From Candidatus Sulfomarinibacteraceae bacterium (lineage in GTDB: Bacteria; Acidobacteriota; Thermoanaerobaculia; Thermoanaerobaculales; Sulfomarinibacteraceae), in NCBI GenBank assembly GCA_963714895.1, contig CAVQQC010000022.1:94746-158745 (forward strand): a stretch of DNA of 64,000 bases, given 5' to 3'. This document shows, piece by piece, positions 23,551-57,696 of this stretch; positions within the stretch are counted from its first letter, which is position 1; each line of letters opens with the position of its first letter. The translations under genes and the position numbers were made by a program. The notes under the pieces were generated by a model that saw only the letters and a list, made by a program, of their open reading frames with translations, did no database searches and had not been told where the DNA came from.

Positions 23551-23668
23551 TCGCGTGCGGCGGCGGTGCCATTTTTGACATTGTCGGAAGCTCGACGGCG
23601 CCCGTCGGCTGGTCGTTCCGGGCAGACAATGTCAAAGGTGGCTCCGCACGGGAAGCGAGCTCGGAAGG
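23551..23668 (+). other. Conserved structured element, copy A (candidate ncRNA or mosaic repeat)
   Basis: Shares cgcgtgcggcggNggtgccatt...attgtcgg...gacaatgt..aggtggctcc.cgggaagcgagc with 31980-32095. Long helix 23568-23587/23625-23642 with compensatory changes relative to copy B. Confidence 0.5.
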
Positions 23669-26968: not shown

Positions 26969-27001
<33 letters not shown>

Positions 27002-29234: not shown

Positions 29235-29462
<228 letters not shown>

Positions 29463-31877: not shown

Positions 31878-31905
31878 GGTCGGATTGTCTCATGGGAGCA
31901 GTCGC

Positions 31906-31927
31906 GGAATTCGGAATTCGGAATTCC
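31906..31927. repeat. Tandem heptamer (GGAATTC)3
   Basis: gcggaattcggaattcggaattccatcaca. The same 'ccatcaca' junction occurs at 23490-23497. Confidence 0.8.
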
Positions 31928-31979: not shown

Positions 31980-32095
31980 CCGCGTGCGGCGGAGGTGCCA
32001 TTCTCAATATTGTCGGACTCTCGATTACCCACTTCGGCAGGGTGATGCGGGCCGACAATGTTGAGGTGGCTCCTCGCGGGAAGCGAGCCCGAAAG
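31980..32095 (+). other. Conserved structured element, copy B (candidate ncRNA or mosaic repeat), about 270 nt upstream of intI
   Basis: Helix 31997-32016/32052-32070 and internal hairpin ATTACCC-acttcggca-GGGTGAT. Sequence and structure are related to 23551-23668. Confidence 0.5.
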
Positions 32096-32364: not shown

Positions 32365-33376
32365 ATGGGAAACGTTCAACAGTTCCCCGTCGCCGCCTCC
32401 CGGCGCCCCCGGCGCCTCATGGACCGGGTCATTTCCGAGATCCGGGTCCGCCACTACTCGATCCGGACCGAAGAGGCCTACACCGCCTGGATCCGGCGCT
32501 ACATCCGGTTTCACCGCAGCCACCCGCGCGATCTCGACGGCGACGACCTCAACCGCTTTCTGACCCACCTCGCCGAACACGACCGGGTCGCGGTCTCGAC
32601 CCAGCGCCAGGCCATGTCCGCCATCCTCTTCCTCTACCGCCACGTGCTCAAGACCAACTTCGAGTGGCTCGACGACGTGGTGCGCGCCCGCCAACCGCGC
32701 CGCCTGCCCAACGTCCTCAGCCGCGAAGAAGTGGCGGCCGTGCTCTCCCGTCTCGAGGGCATCCCACAGCTCGTGGTGCTGCTGCTCTACGGCACCGGCA
32801 TGCGGATCCTCGAGTGCCTGCGGCTTCGCGTCCAGGACATCGACTTCGATCTCGGCCACATCACCATCCGCCGACCCAAGGGCGGCCGCGACCGGGTGAC
32901 CATGCTTCCGGAATCCACCCGCGACCGCCTGCAGCGACCACCTGATCAACGGTCCGCACTCTCCACGAACAGGACCTCGCGGAAGGCTTCGGCAACGTCT
33001 ACCTGCCGGACGCCCTCGCCCGCAAGTATCCCCACGCCGACCGCGACTGGAAATGGCAGTACGTCTTCCCGGCCGCCAGCCGCGGCATCGATCCGCGCAC
33101 CGGCATCGATCGCCGCCACCACCTCCACGAGTCGGTCATCCGAAAGGCCGTCTACGCCGCGGCTCGCGCTGCAGCCATTCCGAAGAAGGTCAGCTGCCAC
33201 ACCTTTCGCCACAGCTTCGCGACCCACCTCCTGATGGCCGGCCACGACATCCGCACCATCCAGGAACTGCTCGGCCACAAAGACGTCAAGACCACCATGA
33301 TCTACACCCACATCCTCGGCAACTCGGCGGGCGCGGCGTCACCAGCCCGGCCGACACCCTCGGGACGGCAGCGTGA
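32365..33376 (+). pseudogene. intI: Integron integrase IntI (three single-base indels as assembled; probably intact in reality)
   Basis: RVRHYSIRTEEAYTAWIRRYIRFH; box I GTGMRILECLRLRVQDID; IntI-specific insert [23 protein letters not shown]; box [15 protein letters not shown]; catalytic Tyr in [13 protein letters not shown]; C-terminal [10 protein letters not shown]. Frame changes at about 32937, 32952 and 33325-33330. Confidence 0.85.
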
Positions 33377-33377
33377 G

Positions 33378-33404
33378 CACGCTAACATCCGTCGTGTTAG
33401 CGTG
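33378..33404 (+). other. 9-bp perfect inverted repeat CACGCTAAC-N9-GTTAGCGTG (attI/attC-like core; candidate recombination site)
   Basis: Contains AAC...GTT cores right after the corrected intI stop (33374-33376). Confidence 0.3.
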
Positions 33405-33465
33405 CGATCCAAGCACGATAACACGACCATCGGTTGTTGAAAAAGAACTGATCTGAAATCAATTA

Positions 33466-33494
33466 TTGACTTGAGATCAATTGCGATATAGATT
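33466..33494 (+). promoter_or_regulatory. Putative outward promoter downstream of intI (Pc-like, or the TA-pair promoter)
   Basis: TTGACT (33466-33471), 17 nt, TAGATT (33489-33494). 12 nt upstream of the ATG at 33506. Confidence 0.45.
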
Positions 33495-33505
33495 GGAAAC
33501 TGGCC

Positions 33506-33820
33506 ATGGTGGGCAGGCCGGACATCACGGAGCAGTTGCCTGGCGGCCAGGCGTTGCGTCTCGCGAAGACGGTCATTCGCGATGGGTCGACGGTCTTCAC
33601 CCGGCACGCGCGCGACGAGATGGAGAATGACGATCTTCTGGAAACAGACGTGGTCAACGCCATCAGCGGGGGAGTGATCAGCGAGCCGGGAGAGCTAGGG
33701 CACAGGGGCGACTGGTGCTATCGAGTCAGGACCGGCAGGGTGACCGTGGTGATCATGTTCCGAAGTGTCGGGGAGATGGTGGTTGTGACGGCATGGCGAG
33801 AGCGGCGGAGAGGACGATGA
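33506..33820 (+). CDS. DUF4258-like small protein (putative toxin)
   Basis: 104 aa, FTRHARDEMENDDLLETDVVNAI...VTVVIMFRSVGEMVVVTAW. ATGA overlap with the downstream antitoxin-like gene. Confidence 0.6.
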   Translation: MVGRPDITEQLPGGQALRLAKTVIRDGSTVFTRHARDEMENDDLLETDVVNAISGGVISEPGELGHRGDWCYRVRTGRVTVVIMFRSVGEMVVVTAWRERRRGR

Positions 33821-34317
33821 AAGAAAAGGTCTCGTGTCTGGAGTGTGGCGCCTTCATGGAGATCACGTTGGGCCCATATCGTTACGGCCGAGGGCTCGAC
33901 GTAGTGGTCCACGACGTCGAGACCAGGCGTTGCCCGGAGTGCGGCCACGACGAGGTGGTGATCCCAAGAATCGAGGAGCTCCACAGGACCATCGCGCGCG
34001 CGATCTCTCAGAGACCGGCCCGCCTCGAGCCCAATGAGATCCGTTTTCTGAGAACCTACCTGGGGTACTCGAGCATGGATTTCGCCGCGTTGCTGGGGGT
34101 GACGCCGGAAACCGTGTCGCGATGGGAACGGACGTCGAAGCCGCAGAAGATGGGGAAAGTGGCTGAACGCCTGCTCCGGATGCTGGCCCAGTACGGGGAA
34201 CCCGATCGGATCTACGACCTCGAGGCCGTGCTGCTGACTGACGGTAACGCTCGCGGAACGGGCCCGGTCATGATCGCCCAATCGAGCGGATCGTGGAAGG
34301 TCGCCGAGGCATGTTGA
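33817..34317 (+). CDS. MqsA/YgiT-type antitoxin-like protein (zinc ribbon + XRE HTH)
   Basis: CLECG...CPECG zinc ribbon followed by the HTH IRFLRTYLGYSSMDFAALLGVTPETVSRWE. Confidence 0.7.
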   Translation: MKEKVSCLECGAFMEITLGPYRYGRGLDVVVHDVETRRCPECGHDEVVIPRIEELHRTIARAISQRPARLEPNEIRFLRTYLGYSSMDFAALLGVTPETVSRWERTSKPQKMGKVAERLLRMLAQYGEPDRIYDLEAVLLTDGNARGTGPVMIAQSSGSWKVAEAC

Positions 34318-34393
34318 GTCGCGCTACCCGTCCTGTTCGCAACGGAATGTTATTTCGTCGAATCCGTACGTCTCGTTCCCTAGCTTTAGTATC

Positions 34394-34410
34394 GCTAATA
34401 TGAGTTAGGC
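34394..34410 (+). other. Candidate attI simple site (GCTAA-N5-GTTAGGC)
   Basis: gctaatatgaGTTAGGC. The layout resembles the L-box/R-box arrangement of known attI sites, and the R box is identical to the array's attC R' core. Confidence 0.35.
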
Positions 34411-34968: not shown

Positions 34969-35035
34969 GCCTAACACCTCATTCCAGCGGACCCTCACCG
35001 CCGCGGTTCGGTCCGCTGAATTGGGGCCGTTAGGC
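34969..35035 (+). other. attC site (family 1)
   Basis: GCCTAAC acctcattccagcggacc...ggtccgctgaattggggcc GTTAGGC. Confidence 0.85.
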
Positions 35036-35130
35036 TCTGAAAAACATGAGCGATTGCAAACCCCGAATCGCAACTGACCTGGACTGATCTCATTATCGAA
35101 GATGTCAAACCGGAAGACGCCGGTCGCTGG

Positions 35131-35506
35131 TTGGCAGAATGGGACTGGCTCGTGTCTGGACGATTGGCTCGGTGTTTGATCACGATGTTCGGAGACTGGT
35201 TCCTGCCAGAAGCCCGACGGATCTACGCAGATGCTCGATGTCCTGGAAGGCACGGTGAAGACTGTCGCCAATACTCCTGGAGAGTTCCGGTTGTTGGTCA
35301 ACGATCAGACCTGGCAAGAAGAAAATCTGCTCTCACCGCTCGTACTCAGACTCCACGAGGGCGGGATGATTCTCGGTAAACACCAATGCTATGCGGTGGC
35401 ACCGCATCCGCTCTTGGTCGGGAAGACTGAGCCGGAATTCATCATGGTCATGGATCTCTCCGTGTGGCAATCAATCTGTTCTCAGACGTTTTATCGGAAG
35501 GCCTAG
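35131..35506 (+). pseudogene. DUF1851/Tdi1-like cassette protein, frame-disrupted as assembled
   Basis: GDWFLPEARRIYADA in one frame joins MLDVLEGTVKTVANTPGEF...QCYAVAPHPLLVGKTEPEFIMVMDLSVWQSICSQ in the next (about 35225). The N-terminus is also broken. Confidence 0.4.
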
Positions 35507-35529
35507 ATTCGGTATGAGTTGCGATATGC

Positions 35530-35598
35530 GCCTAACACCTCATTCCAGCGGACCCCCACCCGCGGCGGGTGGTGTCCGCTGAATTCGGACCGTTAGGC
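35530..35598 (+). other. attC site (family 1)
   Basis: GCCTAAC...cccacccgcggcgggtgg...GTTAGGC, 69 bp. Confidence 0.88.
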
Positions 35599-35619
35599 CA
35601 TCGCTGGGAGGACAACGTC

Positions 35620-35940
35620 GTGATTTGGACACTCTCGAGAGACAGCGCTCCGCTCGAGGCACCGTTAGTTCGGCACTGTGATCATTGCGGTGGCGATGAA
35701 CTCTCGCAGGACTACTTGTGGTACAGCTTTGTTTCGGTCTACGGACTCTTCCCGTTTATTAAATCGAAATCACTTGTTCGAGTTTGTGCCAGGTGCGGCA
35801 CGGAACACGACCTCGGCCCGGAAGCAGTTCCCAACCATGCAAGTCGCGAGATTCCGTTTTTTCGGCGGTTTGGGTGTTTGCTCTTGGTCGGCTTTCTTGT
35901 GGTCTTTGCAGGGGTTTCATTTGTTATCAACAACCCGTAG
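35620..35940 (+). CDS. Hypothetical cassette protein: zinc-ribbon-like CxxC pairs plus a C-terminal TM helix
   Basis: HCDHCGG...CARCG, then FGCLLLVGFLVVFAGVSFVI. GTG start just after the attC. Confidence 0.5.
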   Translation: MIWTLSRDSAPLEAPLVRHCDHCGGDELSQDYLWYSFVSVYGLFPFIKSKSLVRVCARCGTEHDLGPEAVPNHASREIPFFRRFGCLLLVGFLVVFAGVSFVINNP

Positions 35941-35950
35941 GATTCTGCGT

Positions 35951-36019
35951 GCCTAACACCTCATTCCAGCGGACCCCCACCCGCGGCGGGTGGTGTCCGC
36001 TGAATTCGGACCGTTAGGC
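35951..36019 (+). other. attC site (family 1)
   Basis: GCCTAAC...GTTAGGC, 69 bp. Confidence 0.88.
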
Positions 36020-36151
36020 CGGTCAGGTAGGTAAGGTGAGTAGCAGGAACATCACACACCGTTGGGGCAAGTGCAGTGCCAAACCGGAGGCGCGGTTTCG
36101 GACACCGTCAGTGGAACGCGCTTCCGACGTGAACGCGGAAATATTGTCCGC
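36020..36151 (+). other. ORF-less 132-bp cassette
   Basis: Bounded by two canonical attC sites. The only ORF (36036-36218) runs into the attC. Contains the hairpin AAACCG-gaggcg-CGGTTT. Confidence 0.6.
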
Positions 36152-36220
36152 GCCTAACACCTCATTCCAGCGGACCCCCACCCGCGGCGGGTGTGGTCCG
36201 CTGAATTCGGACCGTTAGGC
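36152..36220 (+). other. attC site (family 1)
   Basis: GCCTAAC...GTTAGGC, 69 bp. Confidence 0.88.
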
Positions 36221-36236
36221 CAGCAGGAAACGAGAC

Positions 36237-36914
36237 ATGGGCACAAGCGTAGACATCGTAGCCTTTGCAGATACCGGCGAGCCTCTTGATGTTTGGGCCC
36301 ATCGGTTGGTCGCAATCTCGACCGCCGCCGAACCGTCTGGTGATGTTGTCGTTCATCTCACCCGAACACCGGCTGGTTCTCATCGCTTCCTTTGGATCGG
36401 GATCTCGGATGACCGCGGTATTAACGCTGGGCTCTACGAGGAAGCTGCCCGGATCGCGAGCGAGTATTCCGAGAATCCCGTGATCGCCGCCTGGTACTCG
36501 GATTCAGCAGGGATGGCTGGATACAAGGTCTTTGAACAGGGCAGGTGTTCGTCTTCAAATGATACTGAGTTGTCCCCGGAAATCGACATCGTCAACCTAT
36601 TCTGCAGACCCTTTGGCGAAGCCTATCCCGGGTCAGAGATTGGCTGTCCTGACGATGTCTTTGACTTATGCTACGGCGAGAACGCAACCGAGGAATCCTA
36701 TGTAATTGGGTCATCCGGGACGCCGCTAGAATCTCCGCAATCTTGGCTTCCACCTCCGCCCGAACCGCAGGGCTGGCGAATCCCACATGAGTTTCGGTGG
36801 GGCAGAAAACCCCGTTCGTTCCTCAAGGGCTTGGCAGTAGTCTTTGGGCTTCTGTCCACAGGTTTGATTCTATTCACCGTCGGTTGGTTCTTGTATGAGA
36901 CAGTATTGAAATAG
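36237..36914 (+). CDS. Hypothetical cassette protein with a C-terminal TM anchor
   Basis: 225-aa ORF filling the cassette. C-terminal LAVVFGLLSTGLILFTVGWFLY. No recognisable family. Confidence 0.55.
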   Translation: MGTSVDIVAFADTGEPLDVWAHRLVAISTAAEPSGDVVVHLTRTPAGSHRFLWIGISDDRGINAGLYEEAARIASEYSENPVIAAWYSDSAGMAGYKVFEQGRCSSSNDTELSPEIDIVNLFCRPFGEAYPGSEIGCPDDVFDLCYGENATEESYVIGSSGTPLESPQSWLPPPPEPQGWRIPHEFRWGRKPRSFLKGLAVVFGLLSTGLILFTVGWFLYETVLK

Positions 36915-36923
36915 GCATGCGAT

Positions 36924-36998
36924 GCCTAACACCTCATTCCAGCGGACCCGAGTCCGCGGCGGCCGCGGCCTCGGTCCGCTGAATTCGGACCGTTAGGT
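36924..36998 (+). other. attC site (family 1 variant, 75 bp)
   Basis: GCCTAAC...GTTAGGT. Confidence 0.85.
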
Positions 36999-37010
36999 AG
37001 AATTCCCTAA

Positions 37011-37463
37011 ATGAAAAGAACTGACCCTGTTTTGCGCCGCTATCTCGCCGTTGGACCCTTGTATCTGCCGATCGCCACAATCGTTGTTCATATCATCGGC
37101 AGCATGGTTTTGGACGTGGCAACTGGCGGGTTCGGCGGTATTCTAGCCGCCCCGATTCTGGCGATTTTCGGTTTGGTTGTTCTGCCCGTCGAACTCCTTG
37201 CTGTCACTCTGCAGTGGTACCTTTACTATGCGCTGTCCTTTTCGAAACGAGCATTCCGGATGCTGTTTGTCGTTTCGGCCGTTCTCGTGCCGGCTCTGGT
37301 TGCGATCCTGGGACCAAAGGAAGAAAATTCTGAAGTCCAATGGGCAGTTGGCTTCGGGATAGGTGCGGCGGTGGCCGGAATTTCGACACTCCTGGCGCTT
37401 CGGTGGATCGTTAGAGCTATTTCGAAAAGCCTCGAAAGGGGAATTCCGGCGACATCAGAATAA
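37011..37463 (+). CDS. Hypothetical integral membrane cassette protein
   Basis: 150 aa with about 4 TM helices. No recognisable family. Confidence 0.55.
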   Translation: MKRTDPVLRRYLAVGPLYLPIATIVVHIIGSMVLDVATGGFGGILAAPILAIFGLVVLPVELLAVTLQWYLYYALSFSKRAFRMLFVVSAVLVPALVAILGPKEENSEVQWAVGFGIGAAVAGISTLLALRWIVRAISKSLERGIPATSE

Positions 37464-37483
37464 TTGGGGAGCAAAATACGTAC

Positions 37484-37553
37484 ACCTAACACCTCATTCC
37501 AGCGGACCCTCACCCGCGGCGGGTGGCGGTCCGCTGAATTCGGACCGTTACGT
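37484..37553 (+). other. attC site (family 1, degenerate R' GTTACGT)
   Basis: ACCTAAC acctcattccagcggaccc...GTTACGT. Confidence 0.8.
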
Positions 37554-37572
37554 CGTCAATCGAAGTACATGG

Positions 37573-37601
37573 TTGCACGGTTACCGTGAAAGCATTATAT
37601 T
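37573..37601 (+). promoter_or_regulatory. Putative cassette-borne promoter (higBA-1)
   Basis: TTGCAC, 17 nt, TATATT. Confidence 0.4.
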
Positions 37602-37621
37602 GAAACGAGAGGTGGCAGGCC

Positions 37622-37915
37622 GTGATCGTCTCGTTCGGTGACAAGGCAACCGAGGCCGTTTTTGACGGAACCCCTGTTCGATTGCTGAAGAGGTTTCCGG
37701 CCGATGTTCTGAAGAGAGCGATTCAAAAACTCGACTACCTCAACGGTATTTCTGAGCTCGCTGATCTTGAAGCCCCTCCGGGGAATCGACTCGAAGCGCT
37801 CAAGGGCGACCTGAAGGGTATGCATAGCATTCGAGTAAACGACCAATGGAGAATCGTATTTCGTTGGCATGGCTCTGATGCTCGTGAGGTCAGACTCGTG
37901 GACTACCACCGGTAA
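37622..37915 (+). CDS. higB: HigB-type toxin (RelE superfamily, plasmid maintenance killer protein)
   Basis: LEAPPGNRLEALKGDLKGMHSIRVNDQWRIVFRW...VRLVDYH. Confidence 0.8.
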   Translation: MIVSFGDKATEAVFDGTPVRLLKRFPADVLKRAIQKLDYLNGISELADLEAPPGNRLEALKGDLKGMHSIRVNDQWRIVFRWHGSDAREVRLVDYHR

Positions 37916-37928
37916 AGGAGAGAATCCG

Positions 37929-38216
37929 ATGATCCCCAAGAACCGTGTTCCGACGCATCCGGGAGAGATTCTCCTTGAGGAGTTCTTGATTCCCATGGGT
38001 CTTTCCCAAGTCAAATTCGCCGCACATATCGGTGTTCCGGTACAGCGGGTCAATGAAATCGTCCGTGGCAAGCGTGGCATCACGCCTGAGACTGCCTGGT
38101 TGTTCGCCCAGGCATTTGGCACCACTCCGCAGCTTTGGGTCAACCTGCAGACAAACTATGATCTCGCACAGAGCAAACCTGATCGAAAGGTGCGGCAACT
38201 CAGAAAGGCTGGATAG
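37929..38216 (+). CDS. higA: HigA antitoxin (XRE HTH)
   Basis: THPGEILLEEFLIPMGLSQVKFAAHIGVPVQRVNEIVRGKRGITPETAWLFAQAFGTTPQLWVNLQ. Confidence 0.85.
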   Translation: MIPKNRVPTHPGEILLEEFLIPMGLSQVKFAAHIGVPVQRVNEIVRGKRGITPETAWLFAQAFGTTPQLWVNLQTNYDLAQSKPDRKVRQLRKAG

Positions 38217-38224
38217 TACGTGAT

Positions 38225-38293
38225 ACCTAACACCTCATTCCAGCGGACCCTCACCCGCGTTGGGTGCGGTCCGCTGAATTCGGACCGCTAGGC
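38225..38293 (+). other. attC site (family 1, degenerate R' GCTAGGC)
   Basis: ACCTAAC...GCTAGGC. Confidence 0.8.
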
Positions 38294-38303
38294 GTTTAAC
38301 GCC

Positions 38304-38332
38304 TTGACATCAAAGCGTCATGACGCTATAAC
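38304..38332 (+). promoter_or_regulatory. Putative cassette-borne promoter with palindromic operator
   Basis: TTGACA, 17 nt, TATAAC. The spacer contains the perfect palindrome GCGTCATGACGC. Confidence 0.5.
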
Positions 38333-38338
38333 GTTTTT

Positions 38339-38569
38339 ATGAGTGATCCCAAACGTACGACGGTCTATTTTGACCCTGAAATCCACCAGGCGCTGCGGCT
38401 GAAATCGGCAGTCTCTGAACGGTCCATATCTGAAATGGTCAACGACGCCGTCCGTAGCTCGTTGGCAGAGGACGCCGAGGATCTTGCGGCCTTCGATGAC
38501 AGGGCGGATGAACCTGCAGTCGACTTCGAGGATTTTGTAAAGAAGATGAAACGCAGTGGCAAGCTTTAA
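38339..38569 (+). CDS. Ribbon-helix-helix (CopG-like) antitoxin
   Basis: KRTTVYFDPEIHQALRLKSAVSERSISEMVNDAV. Overlaps the toxin gene start. Confidence 0.7.
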   Translation: MSDPKRTTVYFDPEIHQALRLKSAVSERSISEMVNDAVRSSLAEDAEDLAAFDDRADEPAVDFEDFVKKMKRSGKL

Positions 38570-38828
38570 GCTGGTCATCAAGCGTTCTGCGGCAAAAGAG
38601 ATCGAATCGATCGGTCAAAAGAAAACGCGTCAACGCATAGTTGAGAGAATCCGAGGGCTTGCCGACGATCCGCGACCCCGTGGTTGCGAAAAGCTCTCGG
38701 GGAAGCATTCGCGCTATAGAATCCGTCAAGGATCTTTCAGGATTCTCTACGAAATCAAGGATGCCGAACTTATCGTTTTCGTCGTCAGGGTGGCGGATCG
38801 TCGTGAAGTGTATAGAGACCTCACCTAA
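38556..38828 (+). CDS. relE: RelE/ParE family toxin
   Basis: KLSGKHSRYRIRQGSFRILYEIKDAELIVFVVRVADRREVY. The stop is the TAA inside the attC R''. Confidence 0.8.
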   Translation: MASFKLVIKRSAAKEIESIGQKKTRQRIVERIRGLADDPRPRGCEKLSGKHSRYRIRQGSFRILYEIKDAELIVFVVRVADRREVYRDLT

Positions 38829-38891
38829 CACCTCGTTCCTGCGGACCCTCACCCGCGGCGGGTTCGGTCCGCTGAACTCGGACCGTTAGGC
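38823..38891 (+). other. attC site (family 1)
   Basis: ACCTAAC...GTTAGGC. Confidence 0.85.
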
Positions 38892-38893
38892 CC

Positions 38894-38922
38894 TTGACTC
38901 CGTGGTGCGATACATGTACATT
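38894..38922 (+). promoter_or_regulatory. Putative cassette-borne promoter with operator
   Basis: TTGACT, 17 nt, TACATT. Overlaps the 9-bp inverted repeat ACATGTACA-N7-TGTACATGT. Confidence 0.5.
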
Positions 38923-38952
38923 AATCCTGTACATGTGAGACGGGAGGCAGAT

Positions 38953-39243
38953 ATGCCGACAGTGACAACCTACACAAACGCCAGAGCCACTCTCGCAGCG
39001 CTTTGTGAGAAAGTGTCATCGACTCGGGAGCCGGTGATCATTCGGCGCCGCAACGCGGAGGATGTCGCACTGGTTTCTGCGGACGAGCTTGAGAGTATTT
39101 TGGAAACCGCCCATCTGATGCGTTCCCCGAAGAACGCGGAGCGGCTCTTAGCTGCTCTCACGCGAGCGCAAGCCAGTGAGCTGCCTCCGTCATCGATCGA
39201 GGAACTTCGAAAAGAGCTCGGACTTGGCCAAGAAACGAAGTAG
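38953..39243 (+). CDS. yefM: Phd/YefM family antitoxin
   Basis: TYTNARATLAALCEKVSSTREPVIIRRRNAEDVALVSADELESILETAHLMRSPKNAERL. Confidence 0.8.
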   Translation: MPTVTTYTNARATLAALCEKVSSTREPVIIRRRNAEDVALVSADELESILETAHLMRSPKNAERLLAALTRAQASELPPSSIEELRKELGLGQETK

Positions 39244-39259
39244 GGGCGACAAGACAACG

Positions 39260-39526
39260 GTGACTCGCGAATGGGTAGCTGTATTTCAGCCCGAATTCGT
39301 GGAGGACCTCAAGTTCTGGGTGAAAACGAATCGAAAGGTGGCTCTTCGCGCACTCGACCTCGTTCAAGCTGTTTTGCGCGACCCGTTTGCAGGCATCGGG
39401 AAACCTGAACCGCTCAAGTACCTTCCTAGCGGTTCATGGTCGCGCCGTCTCACTGAAGAGCACCGAATTGTCTACCTTGTGAGTGACGGTCGGATCGACT
39501 TCCTGCAAGCCCGCTATCACTATTGA
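39260..39526 (+). CDS. yoeB: Txe/YoeB family toxin
   Basis: DPFAGIGKPEPLKYLPSGSWSRRLTEEHRIVYLVSDGRIDFLQARYHY. Start is uncertain (GTG 39260). Confidence 0.8.
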   Translation: MTREWVAVFQPEFVEDLKFWVKTNRKVALRALDLVQAVLRDPFAGIGKPEPLKYLPSGSWSRRLTEEHRIVYLVSDGRIDFLQARYHY

Positions 39527-39533
39527 TGTGCCT

Positions 39534-39602
39534 GCCTAACACCTCATTCCAGCGGACCCCCACCCGCGGCGGGTGGTGTCCGCTGAACTCGGACCGTTGG
39601 CG
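39534..39602 (+). other. attC site (family 1) whose R' reads GTTGGCG because of the downstream insertion
   Basis: GCCTAAC...ggaccG|TTggcg. Confidence 0.8.
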
Positions 39603-39755
39603 CGGCGCTACGCGCCGCCCCAACAGACGGGAGTTAAATGTACGCCCGGTGTCCGGCGCGGCGCCGGCCAACCGTGCGTTCAAGCTGGCGGACGCAGGCT
39701 ACAGTCGCACGCGGCGTGCGCCTGATATCCTGCGCCGCAGCTTAACTCCCGCCCG
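39597..39755 (+). mobile_element. 159-nt ORF-less structured element / micro-cassette, copy 1
   Basis: Starts TTGGCGCGGCGCTACGCGCCGCC, ends TTAACTCCCGCCCG, followed by TTAGC. The long-range stem AACAGACGGGAGTTAA/TTAACTCCCGYCYGTT encloses branched hairpins. Confidence 0.7.
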
Positions 39756-39778
39756 TTAGCTGATCTTCAGATCCGACC

Positions 39779-39807
39779 TTGACAAGGTGTACAAATGTAC
39801 ATACATT
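39779..39807 (+). promoter_or_regulatory. Putative cassette-borne promoter (brnTA)
   Basis: TTGACA, 17 nt, TACATT. The spacer contains TGTACA-AA-TGTACA. Confidence 0.5.
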
Positions 39808-39814
39808 TATTTCA

Positions 39815-40087
39815 GTGACAGTTGAGTGGGATCCCGCCAAGGCTCGTTCCAATCTAGCGAAGCATGGGATTGATTTCGCCGACGCTTCAATCGCTCTTGA
39901 AGACGAATTCGCGCTCACGATCGAAGACAAATCTGCTGGTGGCGAGCAACGATTCCTTACTCTGTGTCGTGATCCAAATAGTCAGGTGATTGTCGTCGTC
40001 CACACGTATCGTGGCGAGACGGTCAGGATTATCTCGGCTCGGAAGGCCACGAACCGCGAACGTCAGACCTACGAGGTGAAAACATGA
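39815..40087 (+). CDS. brnT: BrnT toxin (DUF497)
   Basis: VEWDPAKARSNLAKHGIDFADA...RIISARKATNRERQTY. Confidence 0.8.
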   Translation: MTVEWDPAKARSNLAKHGIDFADASIALEDEFALTIEDKSAGGEQRFLTLCRDPNSQVIVVVHTYRGETVRIISARKATNRERQTYEVKT

Positions 40088-40338
40088 AACGAGAGTATGA
40101 CTTCAAGAACGGAAAGCGTGGGGCGGTTGTCCGGCCGGCGGCCGGGAAGACACGAATCACTATCCGAATTGATGACGATGTCTTGGCGTGGTTCAAGGAC
40201 GAGGTGCGTGAAGCGGGCGGTGGGAATTACCAATCCCTTATCAACGCTGCTCTGCGGGAACATATCGATTATCAGGAGGAACCCCTGGAAGACACCCTTC
40301 GCAAGGTAATTCGCGAAGAGCTCAGGAATGCCAGCTAA
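40084..40338 (+). CDS. brnA: BrnA antitoxin
   Basis: EYDFKNGKRGAVV...RITIRIDDDVLAWFKDEVREAGGGNYQSLINAALREHI. ATGA overlap with brnT. The stop is the TAA in the attC R''. Confidence 0.8.
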   Translation: MKREYDFKNGKRGAVVRPAAGKTRITIRIDDDVLAWFKDEVREAGGGNYQSLINAALREHIDYQEEPLEDTLRKVIREELRNAS

Positions 40339-40401
40339 CACCTCATTCCAGCGGACCCCCACCCGCGGCGGGTGGTGTCCGCTGAACTCGGACCGTTGGC
40401 G
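40333..40401 (+). other. attC site (family 1; R'' AGCTAAC, R' GTTGGCG)
   Basis: AGCTAAC acctcattccagcggacc...ggaccG|TTggcg. Confidence 0.8.
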
Positions 40402-40554
40402 CGGCGCTACGCGCCGCCCCAACAGACGGGAGTTAAATGTACGCCCGGTGTCCGGCGCGGCGCCGGCCACCCGTGCGTTCAAGCTGACGGACGCAGGCTA
40501 CAGTCGCACGCGGCGTGCGCCTGATATCCTGCGCCGCAGCTTAACTCCCGCCTG
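40396..40554 (+). mobile_element. 159-nt ORF-less structured element / micro-cassette, copy 2
   Basis: Near-identical to 39597-39755. Ends ...ctcccgcctG followed by TCAGGC. Confidence 0.7.
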
Positions 40555-40588
40555 TCAGGCCTTTCACGGTGTCGAGTACAATCCTCAT

Positions 40589-40822
40589 GTGTACTTCGAA
40601 ATAGTTGGTGAAATCAGTGACGTCGAGACGATTGCTGCGGGGAACGCGATCCGGGAACTCGATCGCCTCCACAAACTGTATGGCAAGGCAAAGTGGCGAA
40701 AGGTAAAGGGTGTGTGCGAGATTCGGCTCTTGAGTGGTCTCGTGGTCAAGGCGGAGTTACATTGGTATGAGGCGCATGGGATTGGCAGGCGGGAATTCAA
40801 GGTCAAGCGCCTGATGGATTGA
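40589..40822 (+). CDS. Hypothetical small protein (first gene of an uncharacterised two-gene cassette)
   Basis: YGKAKWRKVKGVCEIRLLSGLVVKAELHWYEAHGIGRREFKVKRL. Start is uncertain (GTG 40589). Confidence 0.5.
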   Translation: MYFEIVGEISDVETIAAGNAIRELDRLHKLYGKAKWRKVKGVCEIRLLSGLVVKAELHWYEAHGIGRREFKVKRLMD

Positions 40823-40825
40823 AAA

Positions 40826-41059
40826 ATGATGATTGAGCAAGATATTTCATTCGTGTTGTGCGTTGAAAACGAGGGTTTCGAAGTCTCCCTCGAGAAGCGT
40901 AAGGTCTATCTTCGGTTGGCCGGTGAACCGGATGGCGATGATCGATTGATCCGCGTCATCGATGAGTCAGGCGAGGACTATCTTTTCCCTTCGGAGTTTT
41001 TTGTTCCGATCATCCTCCCTAAAGCTGCAACGGCCGTATTCGAAGAAGCTTCAGCCTAA
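40826..41059 (+). CDS. Hypothetical small acidic protein (second gene of the two-gene cassette)
   Basis: VENEGFEVSLEKRKVYLRL...LIRVIDESGEDYLFPSEFFVPIILP. 3-nt gap from the upstream ORF. The stop is the TAA in the attC R''. Confidence 0.55.
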   Translation: MMIEQDISFVLCVENEGFEVSLEKRKVYLRLAGEPDGDDRLIRVIDESGEDYLFPSEFFVPIILPKAATAVFEEASA

Positions 41060-41122
41060 CACCTCATTCCAGCGGACCCCCACCCGCGGCGAGTGTGGTC
41101 CGCTGAACTCGGACCGTTAGGG
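41054..41122 (+). other. attC site (family 1)
   Basis: GCCTAAC...GTTAGGG. Confidence 0.85.
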
Positions 41123-41132
41123 ACGACCTGGC

Positions 41133-41161
41133 TTGACAGTTGATTCGCCAGAATGTATCTT
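41133..41161 (+). promoter_or_regulatory. Putative cassette-borne promoter (mazEF)
   Basis: TTGACA, 17 nt, TATCTT. Confidence 0.45.
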
Positions 41162-41182
41162 CTTTGTAGATACGGAGGCGTT

Positions 41183-41425
41183 ATGAAAACTCAGGTCCAA
41201 AAATGGGGAAACAGCCTGGCTCTCAGGATTCCGAAAGCCTTTGCGGCTGACCTGGGATTGGCACACGACACCCCGGTTGAGCTTTCTCTTGAAGACGGCA
41301 ATCTTGTAATCCGCCCGTCGTCGATTCAGCGTTATGAACTCAGCAGCCTATTGACGCGAGTCACGGAAGCAAACGTGCATGGTGAGCAGGACAACGGCGA
41401 CGCTGTCGGATCCGAAGAGTGGTAG
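41183..41425 (+). CDS. mazE: MazE/AbrB-type antitoxin (SpoVT-AbrB domain)
   Basis: MKTQVQKWGNSLALRIPKAFAADLGL...LVIRP. Confidence 0.8.
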   Translation: MKTQVQKWGNSLALRIPKAFAADLGLAHDTPVELSLEDGNLVIRPSSIQRYELSSLLTRVTEANVHGEQDNGDAVGSEEW

Positions 41426-41760
41426 CTGGAAAAGAGGCCCCGCAACGTGGTGACGTGGTCTGGGTTTCGCTGAACCCGCAGGCCGGCCACGAACAGGAAG
41501 GTCGAAGGCCTGCGCTGGTTCTGTCGCCGGTTGAGTACAACGAACGGGTCGGTTTGGCGCTGATGTGTCCGGTGACGAGCAAAGTCAAAGGCTATCCGTT
41601 CGAGGTACCTCTTCCAGAAGACCTCGATATTGGAGGCGTGGTACTGGCCGATCAGGTCAAGAGTCTCGATTGGAGAGTTCGCAGAGCTGAGCATGCTTGC
41701 ACCGTGCCTCAGTCCGTCATGAATGAAGTGCTCGGAAAACTCAATGCGCTCCTCACGTGA
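41419..41760 (+). CDS. mazF: MazF/PemK family endoribonuclease toxin
   Basis: PQRGDVVWVSLNPQAGHEQEGRRPALVLSP...CPVTSKVKGYPFEV...VLADQVKSLDW. Confidence 0.85.
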   Translation: MVAGKEAPQRGDVVWVSLNPQAGHEQEGRRPALVLSPVEYNERVGLALMCPVTSKVKGYPFEVPLPEDLDIGGVVLADQVKSLDWRVRRAEHACTVPQSVMNEVLGKLNALLT

Positions 41761-41785
41761 TGAAGGACCGCTTGATGACTGTGAG

Positions 41786-41854
41786 CCCTAACACCTCATT
41801 CCATCGGACCCCCACCCGCGGCGGGTGTGGTCCGCTGAACTCGGACCGTTAGGT
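41786..41854 (+). other. attC site (family 1)
   Basis: (G)CCCTAAC...GTTAGGT. Confidence 0.85.
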
Positions 41855-41879
41855 TTACAATGGGTTTGGAGACACAGCC

Positions 41880-42077
41880 ATGAAGTACAAAGTAGCCCTT
41901 CACGAAGACGAAGAAGGCTTCGCCGTTTCTGTACCCGGACTTCCAGGATGTTGGTCTCAAGGTGGCACCGAAAGGGAAGCTCTCGAAAATATCGAAGCAG
42001 CGATTCGTGAGTACCTTGAGGTCGTTGACGATCTCATCGGTGACTCAATGGTTCGCGAGATCGAAATCGCGGTCTGA
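41880..42077 (+). CDS. hicB: HicB antitoxin (short form)
   Basis: YKVALHEDEEGFAVSVPGLPGCWSQGGTEREALENIEAAIREYLE. Confidence 0.8.
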   Translation: MKYKVALHEDEEGFAVSVPGLPGCWSQGGTEREALENIEAAIREYLEVVDDLIGDSMVREIEIAV

Positions 42078-42079
42078 AG

Positions 42080-42292
42080 TTGCCTCGAATACCTGGCGTC
42101 AACCACCTTGCGGCCGTCAGGGCACTCGAAAAGGCCGGATTTCGCATCGCCCGCCAGAGCAAACATATCGTTATGACCGACGGCACGCGAATTGTCACGA
42201 TTCCGCGGCACAATCCTGTCAACGCATTCACGCTGGGTGGAATCGTCCGAGACGCCGGCCTCACCGTTGAGGAGTTCAGGGCGTTGCTGTGA
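42080..42292 (+). CDS. hicA: HicA toxin
   Basis: AVRALEKAGFRIARQSKHIVMTDGTRIVTIPRHNPVNAFTLGGIVRDAGLTVEEF. Confidence 0.8.
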   Translation: MPRIPGVNHLAAVRALEKAGFRIARQSKHIVMTDGTRIVTIPRHNPVNAFTLGGIVRDAGLTVEEFRALL

Positions 42293-42299
42293 TCCATCC

Positions 42300-42374
42300 A
42301 CCTAACTCCTCATTCCAGCGGACCCCCACCCCCACCCGCGGCGGGTGTGGTCCGCTGAACTCGGACCGTTGGCG
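42300..42374 (+). other. attC site (family 1 variant, 75 bp; R' GTTGGCG)
   Basis: ACCTAAC tcctcattccagcggacccccacccccacccgcgg...ggaccG|TTggcg. Confidence 0.8.
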
Positions 42375-42527
42375 CGGCGCTTCGCGCCGCCCCAACAGAC
42401 GGGAGTTTAATGTGCGCCCGGTGTCCGGCGCGGCGCCGGCCAACCGTGCGTTCAAGCTGACGGACGCAGGCTACAGTCGCACGCGGCGTGCGCCTGATAT
42501 CCTGCGCCGCAGCTTAACTCCCGTCTG
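42369..42527 (+). mobile_element. 159-nt ORF-less structured element / micro-cassette, copy 3
   Basis: Near-identical to copies 1 and 2. Here the closing stem is perfect (aacagacgggagtt/aactcccgtctgtt). Followed by TTAGGG. Confidence 0.7.
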
Positions 42528-42552
42528 TTAGGGTATGAAAGAAACGTAACGC

Positions 42553-42581
42553 TTGACGTTATTAACGCGACGCATTATTAT
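42553..42581 (+). promoter_or_regulatory. Putative cassette-borne promoter (higBA-2)
   Basis: TTGACG, 17 nt, TATTAT. Confidence 0.5.
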
Positions 42582-42587
42582 AGTACT

Positions 42588-42869
42588 GTGATTCGGAGCT
42601 TCAAAGACCCAGAGGCCGAACGGATTTTCAAGCGTGAACGTTCTAGAAAGCTCCCGCAGAACATCTACCGCTCGGCTTTGAAGAAGCTTCTCGTGCTTGA
42701 CGCCGCCGATGCTTTGGCCGATCTGAGAGTTCCGCCCGGGAATCGCCTTGAAAAGCTGTCCGGGGATCGAAAGGGTCAACACAGCATCCGGATCAACGAT
42801 CAGTGGAGGATCTGCTTCCGCTGGAGAAACGGCGATGCCCTCGATGTGGAAATCGCCGACTATCACTAA
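42588..42869 (+). CDS. higB: HigB-type toxin (second copy, divergent)
   Basis: LRVPPGNRLEKLSGDRKGQHSIRINDQWRICFRW...VEIADYH. Confidence 0.8.
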   Translation: MIRSFKDPEAERIFKRERSRKLPQNIYRSALKKLLVLDAADALADLRVPPGNRLEKLSGDRKGQHSIRINDQWRICFRWRNGDALDVEIADYH

Positions 42870-42876
42870 GGACGGA

Positions 42877-43185
42877 ATGATGGCGAAGAAACTGGTGGAC
42901 CCAATTCACCCTGGCGAGATCTTGATGGAGGAGTTCCTTGAGCCTCTGGGTGTCAGTCAGTATCGGCTGTCCAAGGACATCAGTGTGCCTCCACGTCGCA
43001 TCAACGAGATTGTCCATGGCAAGCGCTCGATTACAGCGGACACGGCGCTTCGGCTTGCACGTTTCTTTGGAACGACTGAGCGGTTCTGGCTCAATCTCCA
43101 GGTTCGTTATGACCTCGAAGTCGAAAAGGACCGTCTTGAAGACGTGCTCGATCGCGATGTAACAGTGTTCCAGGCCGTTGGGTAA
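42877..43185 (+). CDS. higA: HigA antitoxin (second copy)
   Basis: IHPGEILMEEFLEPLGVSQYRLSKDISVPPRRINEIVHGKRSITADTALRLARFFGTTERFWLNLQ. Confidence 0.85.
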   Translation: MMAKKLVDPIHPGEILMEEFLEPLGVSQYRLSKDISVPPRRINEIVHGKRSITADTALRLARFFGTTERFWLNLQVRYDLEVEKDRLEDVLDRDVTVFQAVG

Positions 43186-43194
43186 AGTAATGAG

Positions 43195-43269
43195 CCCTAA
43201 CACCTCATTCCAGCGGACCCCCACCCCCACCCGCGGCGGGTGTGGTCCGCTGAACTCGGACCGTTAGGC
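43195..43269 (+). other. attC site (family 1 variant, 75 bp)
   Basis: (G)CCCTAAC...cccacccccacccgcgg...GTTAGGC. Confidence 0.85.
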
Positions 43270-43282
43270 CAGAGACGAAAAC

Positions 43283-44032
43283 GTGGATGACACCTTCCAC
43301 CTCTACACAGACCTAGCGTGGCTGTGGCCAATGTGGGGCGATGCCACCACTGAATACGCGCACTATTGCCGGCACGTTACAGGCCTGATTCGACAGCACG
43401 CCAAGCGCCCGGTAGGCACCTTGCTGGACATTGGGTGCGGGGGCGGAAAAAACGTCTTGAATCTGAAGCGGGAGTTCAACGTCACCGGTGTTGATCTGAG
43501 TTCCGCCATGCTCGCACAGGCGAAAGAATTGAATCCAGAGTGCACGTTCATCCAAGGGGATATGCGAACGTTCAGGCTCGACAGTACCTTCGACGCCGTA
43601 ATGATGGATGATGCAATATCGTACATGAGTTGCCTCGCCGACTTCGTGGCGGCGTTTCGGACGGCGTATGCTCACCTGAACCCTGGCGGCGTTCTGGTCG
43701 CGACTCCGGATGCGACGACCGAGACTTTCCAGCAAAACAAGACGATCGTTACCCCCGCGACGCCCAAGGCCACACCGGCCGGCGTCGAGGTCGTGTTCGT
43801 TGAGAACACGTATGATCCCGACCCCACGGATGAGCAGTACGAAACGACGGTTTTGTATCTCATTCGTGTCCATGGGCGCCTCCGGATTGAGACCGACCAC
43901 TGGACCATGGGGATATTCAGTCTGGACACATGGAGGCGTGTTCTGCGCGAGGCCGGTTTCGAGGTGCATGAGGGACAGTACAGCACGGGCGAGGATGACT
44001 ACATGGTTTTCACCTGCGTTAAGGCAGGATGA
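43283..44032 (+). CDS. Class I SAM-dependent methyltransferase
   Basis: LLDIGCGGGKNV motif I, DAVMMDDAISYM, LNPGGVLV. Confidence 0.8.
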   Translation: MDDTFHLYTDLAWLWPMWGDATTEYAHYCRHVTGLIRQHAKRPVGTLLDIGCGGGKNVLNLKREFNVTGVDLSSAMLAQAKELNPECTFIQGDMRTFRLDSTFDAVMMDDAISYMSCLADFVAAFRTAYAHLNPGGVLVATPDATTETFQQNKTIVTPATPKATPAGVEVVFVENTYDPDPTDEQYETTVLYLIRVHGRLRIETDHWTMGIFSLDTWRRVLREAGFEVHEGQYSTGEDDYMVFTCVKAG

Positions 44033-44037
44033 AGGCC

Positions 44038-44090
44038 GCACAACGCGTTGCAGGCGACGCTTGACAGCGCGCCTGAACGCCACGTTAGGC
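44038..44090 (+). other. attC site of a different, shorter type (53 bp)
   Basis: GCACAAC-GCGTTGCAGGCG-acgcttgacagcg-CGCCTGAACGC-cac-GTTAGGC. The stem has one unpaired base, as attC sites typically do. Confidence 0.65.
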
Positions 44091-44123
44091 GACAACGATC
44101 GTTTCTCGGTACATAATTGACCC

Positions 44124-44364
44124 GTGAGTCCTACCGTCTTTCGAAGCGGCCCGTACCGGTTTTATTTCTTTTCCAGGGAAGAGCCGCGATTGCACATCCA
44201 TGTCGATTCAGCCAAACGGGGAGGCCAAGTACTGGATCGAACCGGCTGTAGAATTGGCTCGAAGTCACGGTCTTTCAGAACCCGAGTTGGTTCGGGTACG
44301 TAAACTAGTAGAGGAGCACGAGGATGTCATCCGTACAGCATGGGACAAGCAATTCGGTGGCTGA
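44124..44364 (+). CDS. DUF4160 family protein (one frameshift as assembled)
   Basis: VSPTVFRSGPYRFYFFSREEPRLHIHVDSA..., then in the next frame AKYWIEPAVELARSHGLSEPELVRVRKLVEEHEDVIRTAWDKQFGG. The join is at the GGGG run at about 44218-44221. Confidence 0.6.
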
Positions 44365-44590
44365 GGTCACCAACATCTCCAGGCACGGCGTCTGGCTGCT
44401 GGTGGACGACCGCGAGCTCTTCATGCCCTTCGATGAGTTTCCCTGGTTCAAAAACGCGCCGGTCAATTCCGTCCTCAAGCTCGAGCGCCCCGGTCACAAT
44501 CACCTTTATTGGCCTGCTCTCGATGTCGACCTCACGGTTGAATCAATCGAGCATCCTGAGAGATACCCGCTCAAAGCCAAGCATGCCTAA
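44324..44590 (+). CDS. DUF2442 family protein
   Basis: VAEVTNISRHGVWLLVDDRELFMPFDEFPWFKNA. Usual partner of DUF4160. The stop is the TAA in the attC R''. Confidence 0.7.
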   Translation: MSSVQHGTSNSVAEVTNISRHGVWLLVDDRELFMPFDEFPWFKNAPVNSVLKLERPGHNHLYWPALDVDLTVESIEHPERYPLKAKHA

Positions 44591-44653
44591 CACCTCGTTC
44601 CAGCGGACCCCCACCCGCGGCGGGTGCGGTCCGCTGAAATCGAACCGTTAGGA
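44585..44653 (+). other. attC site (family 1)
   Basis: GCCTAAC acctcgttccagcggacc...GTTAGGA. Confidence 0.85.
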
Positions 44654-57505: not shown

Positions 57506-57522
57506 GGAGCGGTCCGTACAAA

Positions 57523-57696
57523 ATTCGGAATTCGGAATTCGGAATTTTGAATTTCGAACCCGTCGCTGCACCACACGGGAAGCGCTGTCCGCCATTCCGA
57601 ATTTCGGATTTCGGATTTCGGATTTGGCTCCGCCCTCCCCAAGAAACCTGGGTGGCTGGTTGAAAATCCGAAATCCGAAATCCGAAATCCGAAATC
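57523..57696. repeat. Composite heptamer element: (GGAATTC)n, then inverted (CGGATTT)n ... (AAATCCG)n
   Basis: 57523-57547 ggaattc array. 57596-57625 cggattt array. 57664-57696 aaatccg array (inverted partner, spacer of about 38 nt). Confidence 0.85.

Follow-up and report, generated by a model that had tools for sequence, protein, structure and literature searches.

A short gene-less unit with its own attC layout in a chromosomal integron of a Sulfomarinibacteraceae bacterium

Integron cassettes without a gene are already well known, for example from Vibrio superintegrons and Treponema integrons (Boucher 2006, PMC1382264; Tansirichaiya 2019, PMC6557892; Blanco 2024, PMC11014356). Some of these non-coding cassettes are paralogous and have been suspected to be selfish (PMC1382264), and many of them act as promoters (PMC11014356; PMC6557892); both selfish spread and service to the array have been proposed for them. 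The element described here, a variant among them, is a unit of 159 nucleotides (nt) that occurs three times in a stretch of 64,000 nt (the window) of a Candidatus Sulfomarinibacteraceae bacterium (assembly GCA_963714895.1, contig CAVQQC010000022.1, positions 94,746 to 158,745), within the co-oriented, plus-strand cassette array of a chromosomal integron. Like the described gene-less cassettes, which often have paralogues in the same array and counterparts conserved between species, it carries no gene. However, those cassettes consist, as described, of a non-coding body and the ordinary attC of the host, whereas the attC of the element is not of the host type; its body is only 69 nt long, lacks promoter-like sites and repeats the flanks of its own attC in antisense, and its family crosses attC types and classes of the integrase IntI and often occupies the place of the first cassette. 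In the literature, of which coverage was incomplete, no account was found of a cassette made of an attC and an antisense leader, or of an attC with a conserved competing fold.

Three further systems invite comparison. The aadA-type attC (59-base element), a substrate of IntI1, reads GTCTAAC-AATTC-GTTCAAGC...GCTTAAC-TCAGGC-GTTAGAT (PMC2117344). The 3' two-thirds of the element, in its size class T1, read GGCCAAC-CGTGC-GTTCAAGC...GCTTAAC-TCCCGTCT-G↓TTAGGG, where the arrow marks the crossover point. The two share the order R''/L''/L'/R', a 5-nt spacer, identical L boxes, an extra C in L'' and the G↓TT crossover; the element differs from a standard attC in its R'' box (GGCCAAC), in a 3' spacer of 8-10 nt instead of 6, in a long variable region (54 nt), and in that its spacers and R half-sites have partners in the leader, so that the standard hairpin is not the most stable fold. 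On the other hand, IS1111-attC insertion sequences (IS) and group IIC-attC introns are also mobile DNA placed specifically inside the attC sites of arrays; their insertion point is close to the 5' (R''/L'') end of attC and their orientation is antisense (PMC3001079). These are 1.3-2 kb long and bring their own enzyme, whereas the element is 159 nt long, has no open reading frame (ORF), and lies in sense orientation at the IntI crossover. Finally, the element resembles miniature transposable elements with inverted repeats (MITEs) and REP-type repeats in being short, non-coding, highly structured and multi-copy, with an enzyme acting in trans, but it has neither terminal inverted repeats nor a target-site duplication, is confined to att G↓TT, and its presumed enzyme would be a tyrosine recombinase working on folded single strands.

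The results below argue for a cargo-less integron cassette moved by IntI and composed of an R' remainder, a leader and its own attC of ~96 nt. The probability of this reading is put at roughly 0.7, mobility being deduced from the distribution of the copies.

Copies in the window and their family

The three copies lie exactly where a first-pass annotation of the window had placed them (Table 1), with zero indels and 3-6 differing positions between copies. Its boundaries also hold: each copy is inserted between the G and the TT of the R' box of a host attC, directly after ...GGACCG, and R' reads GTTGGCG instead of GTTAGGC at each occupied window junction. The 3' ends are CTCCCGCCCG↓TTAGCT (copy 1), CTCCCGCCTG↓TCAGGC (copy 2) and CTCCCGTCTG↓TTAGGG (copy 3). 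All the hairpins listed in that annotation are present, and only the description of the 16-bp closing stem as perfect in copy 3 needs correction, for a bulged T was found there (GAGTTTAA vs TTAACTC); in copies 1 and 2, A.C mismatches (one or two) stand beside AAC/GTT. Compared with shuffled sequences, the fold reaches z-scores of -6.7 to -9.8 as DNA and as RNA on both strands, and none of 200 shuffles was equally good. The first-pass annotation had seen no plausible ORF, and none is credible in the element: the family alignment contains 1- and 2-nt indels and paired substitutions, and the long ORF that spans copy 2 exists solely because GTTAGG is mutated to GTCAGG there. Together with the mutated inner R'' of this copy, the mutated downstream R' implies that copy 2 is probably immobilised.

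Relatives were sought in several ways. A window-specific closing-stem pattern gave, among genome representatives, a single chance match inside an archaeal coding region, and a window-specific 20-mer had no match in metagenomes. Five pattern scans of viral contigs yielded eight chance matches for one pattern and none for the other four; blastn against plasmids returned no copy of the element, nor was any found in the viral contigs, and neither of two cassette proteins submitted to exact look-up was recorded. The repaired reading frame of the window IntI, used as a protein query, returned many relatives with 80-94% identity, among them the intact proteins P0001 and P0004 (92-94%), and six contigs of these relatives were taken with 10-kb flanks (loci L010-L015). 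Their arrays share the attC type and the co-oriented layout of the window, and the element is present in five of the seven arrays (window included): L010 has a copy 96% identical, after an attC; L015 a 162-nt copy directly at attI; L012 a 195-nt variant at attI; and L013 a 198-nt variant after a different attC. These copies identified the 5' hairpin, H1, as the constant part. A metagenome scan with the H1 pattern TTGGCGCGGCGNNNCGCGCCRCNCCAAC gave 77 loci and, with profile searches added, the family amounts to ~101 copies in 83 loci, window counted. Three size classes were distinguished: T1, which includes the window copies (157-162 nt, 37 distinct sequences, 64-99% pairwise identity), T2 (195-198 nt, 13 distinct sequences) and T3 (150 nt, 3 distinct sequences).

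In line with the IntI-type boundaries seen in the first-pass annotation, copies across metagenomes follow a G and are nearly all followed by TT, at attC or attI sites. G precedes 94 of 94 matches to the H1 pattern (CG 72, AG 12, TG 9, GG 1). For the 64 complete copies, whose 3' end was located via stem complementarity, TT follows in 62 (60 as TTRRRY-like hexamers, most commonly TTAGGC, 38, and TTAGGT, 10), the exceptions being window copy 2 (TCAGGC) and L065 (CACGAA). None is reversed among ~100 copies, and a position downstream of intI and attI in cassette orientation holds in the window, L010, L012, L013 and L015. Downstream, 52 distinct groups were counted among the 61 flanks that could be scored. 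Upstream contexts were tallied by eye, for automatic classification by minimum-energy folds misfiled obvious attCs; most copies follow attC hairpins, which are of several sequence types.

The element is also found at attI. At least 13 copies lie as first cassette at an attI motif ..TAGTAYCGCTAAY....G↓TT. For example, L012, L015, L085, L030, L054/L087 and L079 have first-cassette copies at ..TAGTATCGCTAACAGTAG↓TT, and tblastn places intI 190-250 nt upstream; the same attI motif is occupied in L025, L034, L043, L075, L062 and L063. In the arrays fetched via IntI alone, the element occupies two of seven attI sites vs ~5 of ~100 attC junctions. Six further copies are located at another motif, ..AATAAC(A)(C)TG↓TT, a putative class-2 attI, which in L066 stands next to a divergently oriented IntI 44% identical to that of the window; class T3 sits beside an IntI of this description. 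An empty site is known as well: the HigBA-like cassette that follows copy 3 in the window stands directly after a plain attC in L075 and L039, and this plain junction is the empty state of the copy 3 junction. L093, with 92% nucleotide identity, covers only the conserved distal part of the array and ends ~0.5-1 kb before copy 3, and therefore offers no strain-level comparison of occupied and empty states.

Besides complete copies, deletion derivatives of 52, 53, 38 and 23 nt and one chimera were recorded, and decayed or truncated copies are common. The idea of a nested cassette, with an inner unit excised at an internal G↓T(T/G) in hairpin A, was discarded: the deletion end points in L051, L075 and L091 differ and lie at short direct repeats, and the deletions look like slippage, not like site-specific excision. 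An apparently inverted copy in L084 was an ordinary copy on the other strand, its inversion being apparent because H1 is nearly palindromic. In L017 (517-680), a T1 copy combines a 5' stem arm GGGCA and a 3' arm GTGCC from different subtypes, and it is a recombinant between two copies. L012 contains a 23-nt unit (17519-17541; TTGGCGCGGCGCGGCGCGGCGCG) with G↓TT on both sides, 5' of the BrnT/BrnA-like cassette (TTAGCT) that in the window stands behind copy 1; it resembles what a collapsed copy of the element would leave. The same locus has host attC versions of 185-210 nt (13406-13596, 14084-14298, 18692-18881) whose central loop carries a branched insert of 110-140 nt. In the chimera of L012 (16590-16782), such a long host attC version and the 3' half of a T2 element are joined at a GCCCTCGGC common to both; the chimera adjoins, on the 5' side, the same HigBA-like cassette as found after window copy 3.

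Conserved fold, leader and inner attC

A consensus structure was obtained from an alignment of the 37 T1 sequences, with pairing partners slid by 1-3 columns and 500 shuffles as controls. Its parts are hairpin H1, the closing stem P1 and a three-way junction from which hairpins A and B project (Table 1). Over its 60 pairs, 98.1% of the cells are standard-paired vs 36-44% with slid partners, and changes on both sides are seen in 18 of the 60 pairs vs 3-6 in the slid controls; no shuffle reaches the observed values. The strongest covariation involves the 4-6 bp beside AAC/GTT (AGAC/GTCT, GGCAC/GTGCC, GGGCA/TGCCC, GCATC/GATGC and others). The same architecture is present in T2, in T3 and in a 52-nt mini form. 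H1 is made up of the R' remainder, 13 nt and an outer R'' box (R''1, CCCCAAC, 42390-42396), and in L090 it has a compensatory variant, TTAGC/GCTAA. Hairpin A, conserved in the three size classes, sequesters the inner R'' and its spacer, whereas hairpin B shows covariation inside T1, and T2 and T3 have unrelated sequence in its place. Joining the ends at G↓TT would turn H1 and P1 into a single helix of 23 bp, and the circle would thus be a closed rod with a forked end; its expected junction sequence is ...CCCGTCTG↓TTGGCGC.

The first 69 nt form the leader, with the 7-nt R' remainder TTGGCGC and a 62-nt non-coding part. After TTGGCGC come a 13-nt mini-hairpin, the R'' box CCCCAAC and an exact complement of the 3' spacer and the L' end; the last part is a complement of the 5' spacer and of the inner R'' (R''2), and constitutes the 5' arm of hairpin A. 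The first-pass annotation had proposed CCCCAAC as the R'' of a second, long attC type. This box indeed closes the stable fold, but a second invariant R'', GGCCAAC (element positions 70-76), heads an inner attC of standard layout. R''2 matches six of the seven positions of the RYYYAAC consensus; L'' (GTT[C]AAGC) follows 5 nt after it, GCTTAAC stands 8-9 nt before R', and the centre is a variable structure, corresponding to the interior of hairpin B. In the array R' reads GTTAGGN, in the circle GTTGGCG. Across T1, R''2, L'' and L' show no or almost no variation; C87, the candidate extrahelical base, is invariant, and it is extrahelical in the alternative fold only. T2 and T3 keep GGCCAAC and the next 5 nt and have L boxes of their own. 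In the same arrays, the L boxes are shared by ORF-bearing cassettes (e.g., GCCTAAC-CCCTC-ATTCAAGCGGACC...GTCCGCTTAAC-TCGAAATC-GTTAGGC).

The element therefore has two mutually exclusive folds, the three-way-junction rod and the standard attC. Spacers of 5 x 8-9 nt are unpaired in the latter, whereas both are leader-paired in the fold that covariation supports, and the distance from AAC/GTT to GTTAA/TTAAC is 9 bp in the rod vs the usual 5 nt, on one strand, in the standard fold. Since the covariation belongs to the three-way junction, that fold is under selection; the conserved attC boxes indicate that the standard attC fold matters too. A single copy with R' GTTAGC has CTAAC in both R'' boxes, and the partner of R''2 in hairpin A is uncompensated; this suggests, from one lineage, that R''2 pairs with R' at some stage.

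Evidence for and against movement by the integrase

The first-pass annotation had proposed a micro-cassette bounded by G↓TT and made almost wholly of a second attC type with a branched centre, and the ~100 relatives, the copies at attI and the empty junction speak for it. IntI would excise the element by recombining the upstream attC or attI with the attC of the element, and would re-insert the small circle at G↓TT of attI, preferentially, or of other attCs. Because excision would be single-stranded and resolved by replication, copy number could rise, and the family would therefore behave as a selfish, MITE-like integron passenger. The leader may act as an 'anti-attC', pairing with both spacers, the L' end, R' and the inner R''. 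The ground state would then be a fully paired rod (H1 and P1) ending in the three-way junction, a resting state stable in the array and in the single-stranded circle, which could be pictured as a closed, viroid-like rod. The standard attC conformer, with unpaired spacer and extrahelical base, would be a rarer alternative and is presumably the form recombined by IntI; its capture is suggested because the 5-nt spacing fits, while the rod has 9 bp.

Several observations weigh against movement by IntI. No excision, integration or circle junction has been observed. The fold backed by covariation is the three-way junction, which has no unpaired spacer and no bulged base, and the standard attC fold is 13-14 kcal/mol less stable than it on either strand. 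The first-pass annotation had suggested scoring with an attC covariance model: one built from 49 host-type attCs gives the element 9 bits (E ~1), from L'-R' only, and 67-85 bits to 15 of 15 scored host attCs, which says only that the attC of the element is not of the host type, membership of the wider attC class lying beyond such a model. Since the metagenome scan required the H1 sequence, the conservation of H1 is partly built in. Three H1 matches have no recognisable att site (L042, L021:852 and L090:2351), and at the putative class-2 attI motif L048/L058 have H1 only, the remainder of the element missing. Upstream of copies 1 and 2, the window has attCs of identical sequence (a 224-nt repeat, 98%), so that segmental duplication or gene conversion is possible instead of two insertions; and since intI has two frameshifts there, the three copies may be fossils.

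A bolder version of the IntI reading, held tentatively, treats the leader as a built-in conformational lock that switches the element between a closed rod, with R'', R' and both spacers masked, and a standard attC hairpin usable by IntI; the element would be the first attC controlled in cis and a minimal, self-sufficient IntI parasite across classes. If so, attC folding, and hence mobility, would be controlled in cis. More generally, a cassette is usually viewed as a gene and an attC; under the IntI reading, an attC and a self-complementary leader of 69 nt would suffice to persist and spread in many arrays and with at least two integrase classes, as a natural minimal cassette of 150-200 nt. 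This would provide a concrete case for the old proposal that some non-coding cassettes are selfish, and it would probe the rules of attC recognition, for neither the unpaired spacer nor the extrahelical base is exposed in the conserved fold. Each insertion changes its neighbour as well, the upstream attC gaining a new R', and such units will confuse cassette counts and the assignment of taxa by attC in metagenomes. They could also be put to use as compact scaffolds on which to engineer cassettes.

The rod might also be read as RNA. The first-pass annotation offered as an alternative a structured small RNA (sRNA) or ribozyme, to which a cis-regulatory leader can be added, carried as a cassette and with the three-way junction as its RNA fold. 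The strong covariation and the very stable fold of the sense strand would suit it, cassette arrays are usually transcribed, and a cassette-borne sRNA, sRNA-Xcc1, provides a precedent (cited in PMC6557892). However, G:T pairs on the top strand fill only 25 of 2211 paired cells (1.1%), 10 of them at one doubtful pair, and are about as rare as A:C (14 cells, 0.6%), and both strands fold equally well. A functional RNA would put up with G:U much more readily than with A:C. The invariant nucleotides are those of helices (the H1 stem, GGGAGT/ACTCCC, CCGGCGC/GCGCCGG and GTTCAAGC/GCTTAAC), which correspond to the R and L boxes of attC, and the terminal loops and the junction strand are the variable parts. 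Rfam gave no match in the whole window at gathering score (the best permissive match had 22.7 bits vs a gathering score of 100, and the best E-value of a permissive search was 0.19), as anticipated by the first-pass annotation, which recognised no known RNA family, and a consensus scan of the three copies detected no sigma-70-like promoter or intrinsic terminator. Taken together, these features point to a DNA rather than an RNA structure, one recognised by a protein, and make an RNA function quite improbable. That scan did find promoter-like sites in the neighbouring toxin-antitoxin cassettes, and copies 1 and 3 are located 24-26 nt 5' of cassettes with such sites of their own, which brings up retention for service to the array as insulator or roadblock to read-through, brake on excision of the upstream neighbour or promoter. 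This explanation is compatible with mobility by IntI. Insertion turns the R' of the neighbour into GTTGGCG, which H1 can sequester, and in the window as in L012 the element or what remains of it stands before two of the downstream cassettes. Nevertheless, the element contains neither promoter nor terminator, its downstream neighbours belong to 52 different groups, the same downstream cassette occurs also without it, and decayed and truncated copies are common; array service is thus considered unlikely.

Mobility could depend instead on another recombinase, the element being non-autonomous and MITE-like, with a target at the GTT of att (IS110/IS1111 with a guide RNA, or IS200/IS605-type). Elements targeting attC exist, as said above, the flanking TT is conceivable as a core dinucleotide, and the related array of L013 contains (16083-16541, minus strand), antisense to the cassettes, a 152-amino-acid fragment of a DEDD/IS110-family transposase, a possible IS1111-attC footprint. 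But the IS elements and introns known from attC sites have their insertion point close to the 5' end, with antisense orientation, whereas the element is always in sense at the 3' crossover, and it occurs also at attI, whose only part in common with attC is G↓TTRRRY. A search up to 3 kb from each copy revealed no larger relative sharing its ends, terminal inverted repeats are absent, and the element bears its own attC layout. The non-autonomous attC-targeting element also suggested in the first-pass annotation is therefore disfavoured, and very improbable. A mini-IS guided by a bridge RNA or seekRNA was considered and set aside, its insertion point and orientation being unlike those of IS1111-attC and no parent element having been found. 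Equally improbable is immobile debris, that is, ordinary cassettes that lost their ORF and spread by descent and duplication within arrays. The deletion derivatives, the chimera, the upstream attC common to copies 1 and 2 and the broken window intI would agree with it, but ~100 copies retain the same minimal architecture with compensatory evolution in the leader, next to 52 different neighbours, several attC types and two IntI classes, and independent ORF deletions would not be expected to leave an identical 69-nt self-complementary leader each time.

The window integron and minor observations

The integron contains 16 host attCs (34969-44653), all on the plus strand and of a single type (67-75 nt, GCCTAAC...GTTAGGC), and the element is at 3 of 17 junctions, attI counted. 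Toxin-antitoxin pairs are the product of most cassettes. The two separate 1-nt insertions in intI (CAG|C|GACC and CAAC|G|GTCC, 32925-32950) are 17 nt apart and absent in six relatives; they represent either a real pseudogene or an assembly error, the remainder of the gene being intact.

Table 1. Positions in the window of the element copies, their parts and other features (details of parts refer to copy 3)
Feature	Position	Strand	Description
Element copy 1	39597-39755	+	159 nt (size class T1); 5' neighbour: G of host attC 39534-39597; 3' neighbour: TTAGCT, start of a BrnT/BrnA-like cassette
Element copy 2	40396-40554	+	159 nt; inner R'' mutated (GGCCACC, 40465-40471), downstream R' mutated (GTCAGGC, 40554-40560)
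Element copy 3	42369-42527	+	159 nt; followed by TTAGGG and a HigB/HigA-like cassette
Host attCs 5' of the copies	39534-39602 (copy 1), 40333-40401 (copy 2), 42300-42374 (copy 3)	+	R' now GTTGGCG; 67-73 bits with the host-attC model
Hairpin H1	42369-42395 (copies 1 and 2: 39597-39623, 40396-40422)	+	TTGG CGCGGCGC-TTC-GCGCCG CCCCAA
Closing stem P1, 5' arm	42396-42407	+	CAGACGGGAGTT; pairs with 42516-42527 (L' end, 3' spacer and crossover G)
Hairpin A	42412-42453	+	Covarying lower stem; conserved TGT/CCAA internal loop; invariant CCGGCGC/GCGCCGG upper stem
Hairpin B	42454-42515	+	L box and variable terminal structure
Inner attC	42438-42533 (copy 1: 39666-39761; copy 2: 40465-40560)	+	96 nt in copy 3; standard attC layout
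Inner attC, 5' parts	42438-42444 (R''2), 42450-42457 (L'')	+	R''2 GGCCAAC; spacer CGTGC; L'' GTT[C]AAGC
Inner attC, 3' parts	42512-42518 (L'), 42527-42533 (R')	+	L' GCTTAAC; spacer TCCCGTCT; R' G↓TTAGGG
intI	32365-33371	+	Cassette strand; IntI-specific patch; broken by two 1-nt insertions near 32930-32947
attI	34387-34406	+	TAGTATCGCTAATATGAG↓TTAGGC; no element copy here
Heptamer arrays, first part	4033-4062/4100-4132, 11858-11890, 14234-14266, 18977-19018, 23434-23486
Heptamer arrays, second part	26970-27001, 29235-29267, 31905-31926, 57522-57546, 57601-57625/57664-57696

Between intI and attI there is ~1 kb (33372-34386) with an ORF similar to helix-turn-helix (HTH)/MqsA proteins (33715-34317), and L063 has a comparable gap; unlike the window, L010-L015 have attI only ~190 nt 3' of intI. 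Another very short cassette, of 201 nt (36017-36217), consists of 132 nt and an ordinary host attC, and its sole ORF is a 60-codon GTG frame that extends into the attC. Beyond the final recognisable attC (44653), a low-GC region contains DUF3788, TfoX_N, YCII and MaoC genes (45.6-49.5 kb), in an order that matches L093 (16.9-20.5 kb; 92% nucleotide identity) and partly L015 (17.8-20.2 kb); this resembles a distal end of the array, old and fixed, whose attCs have decayed. For PEP carboxylase, the nearest named relatives belong to metagenome-assembled genomes of Acidobacteria or Myxococcota, with 73% identity or less.

Related heptamers (GAATTCG, TTCGGAT, ATTTCGG and AAATCCG) form many intergenic tandem arrays, with 4-7 copies each, that are scattered over the window, some as inverted pairs ~40 nt apart, and a similar (GGTTTTA)n array abuts the solo H1 hairpin of L042 (6596, minus strand). 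At 16423-16632, a 42-nt unit (GGCAATGGGGCAATGAGGCAGTGGTCGGCCGCGCTGCGGCCT) is repeated in tandem ~5 times, with octamer arrays on its flanks. Finally, an 81-nt direct repeat with 77% identity (23552-23632 and 31981-32061, 8.4 kb apart) has one of its copies directly 5' of intI.

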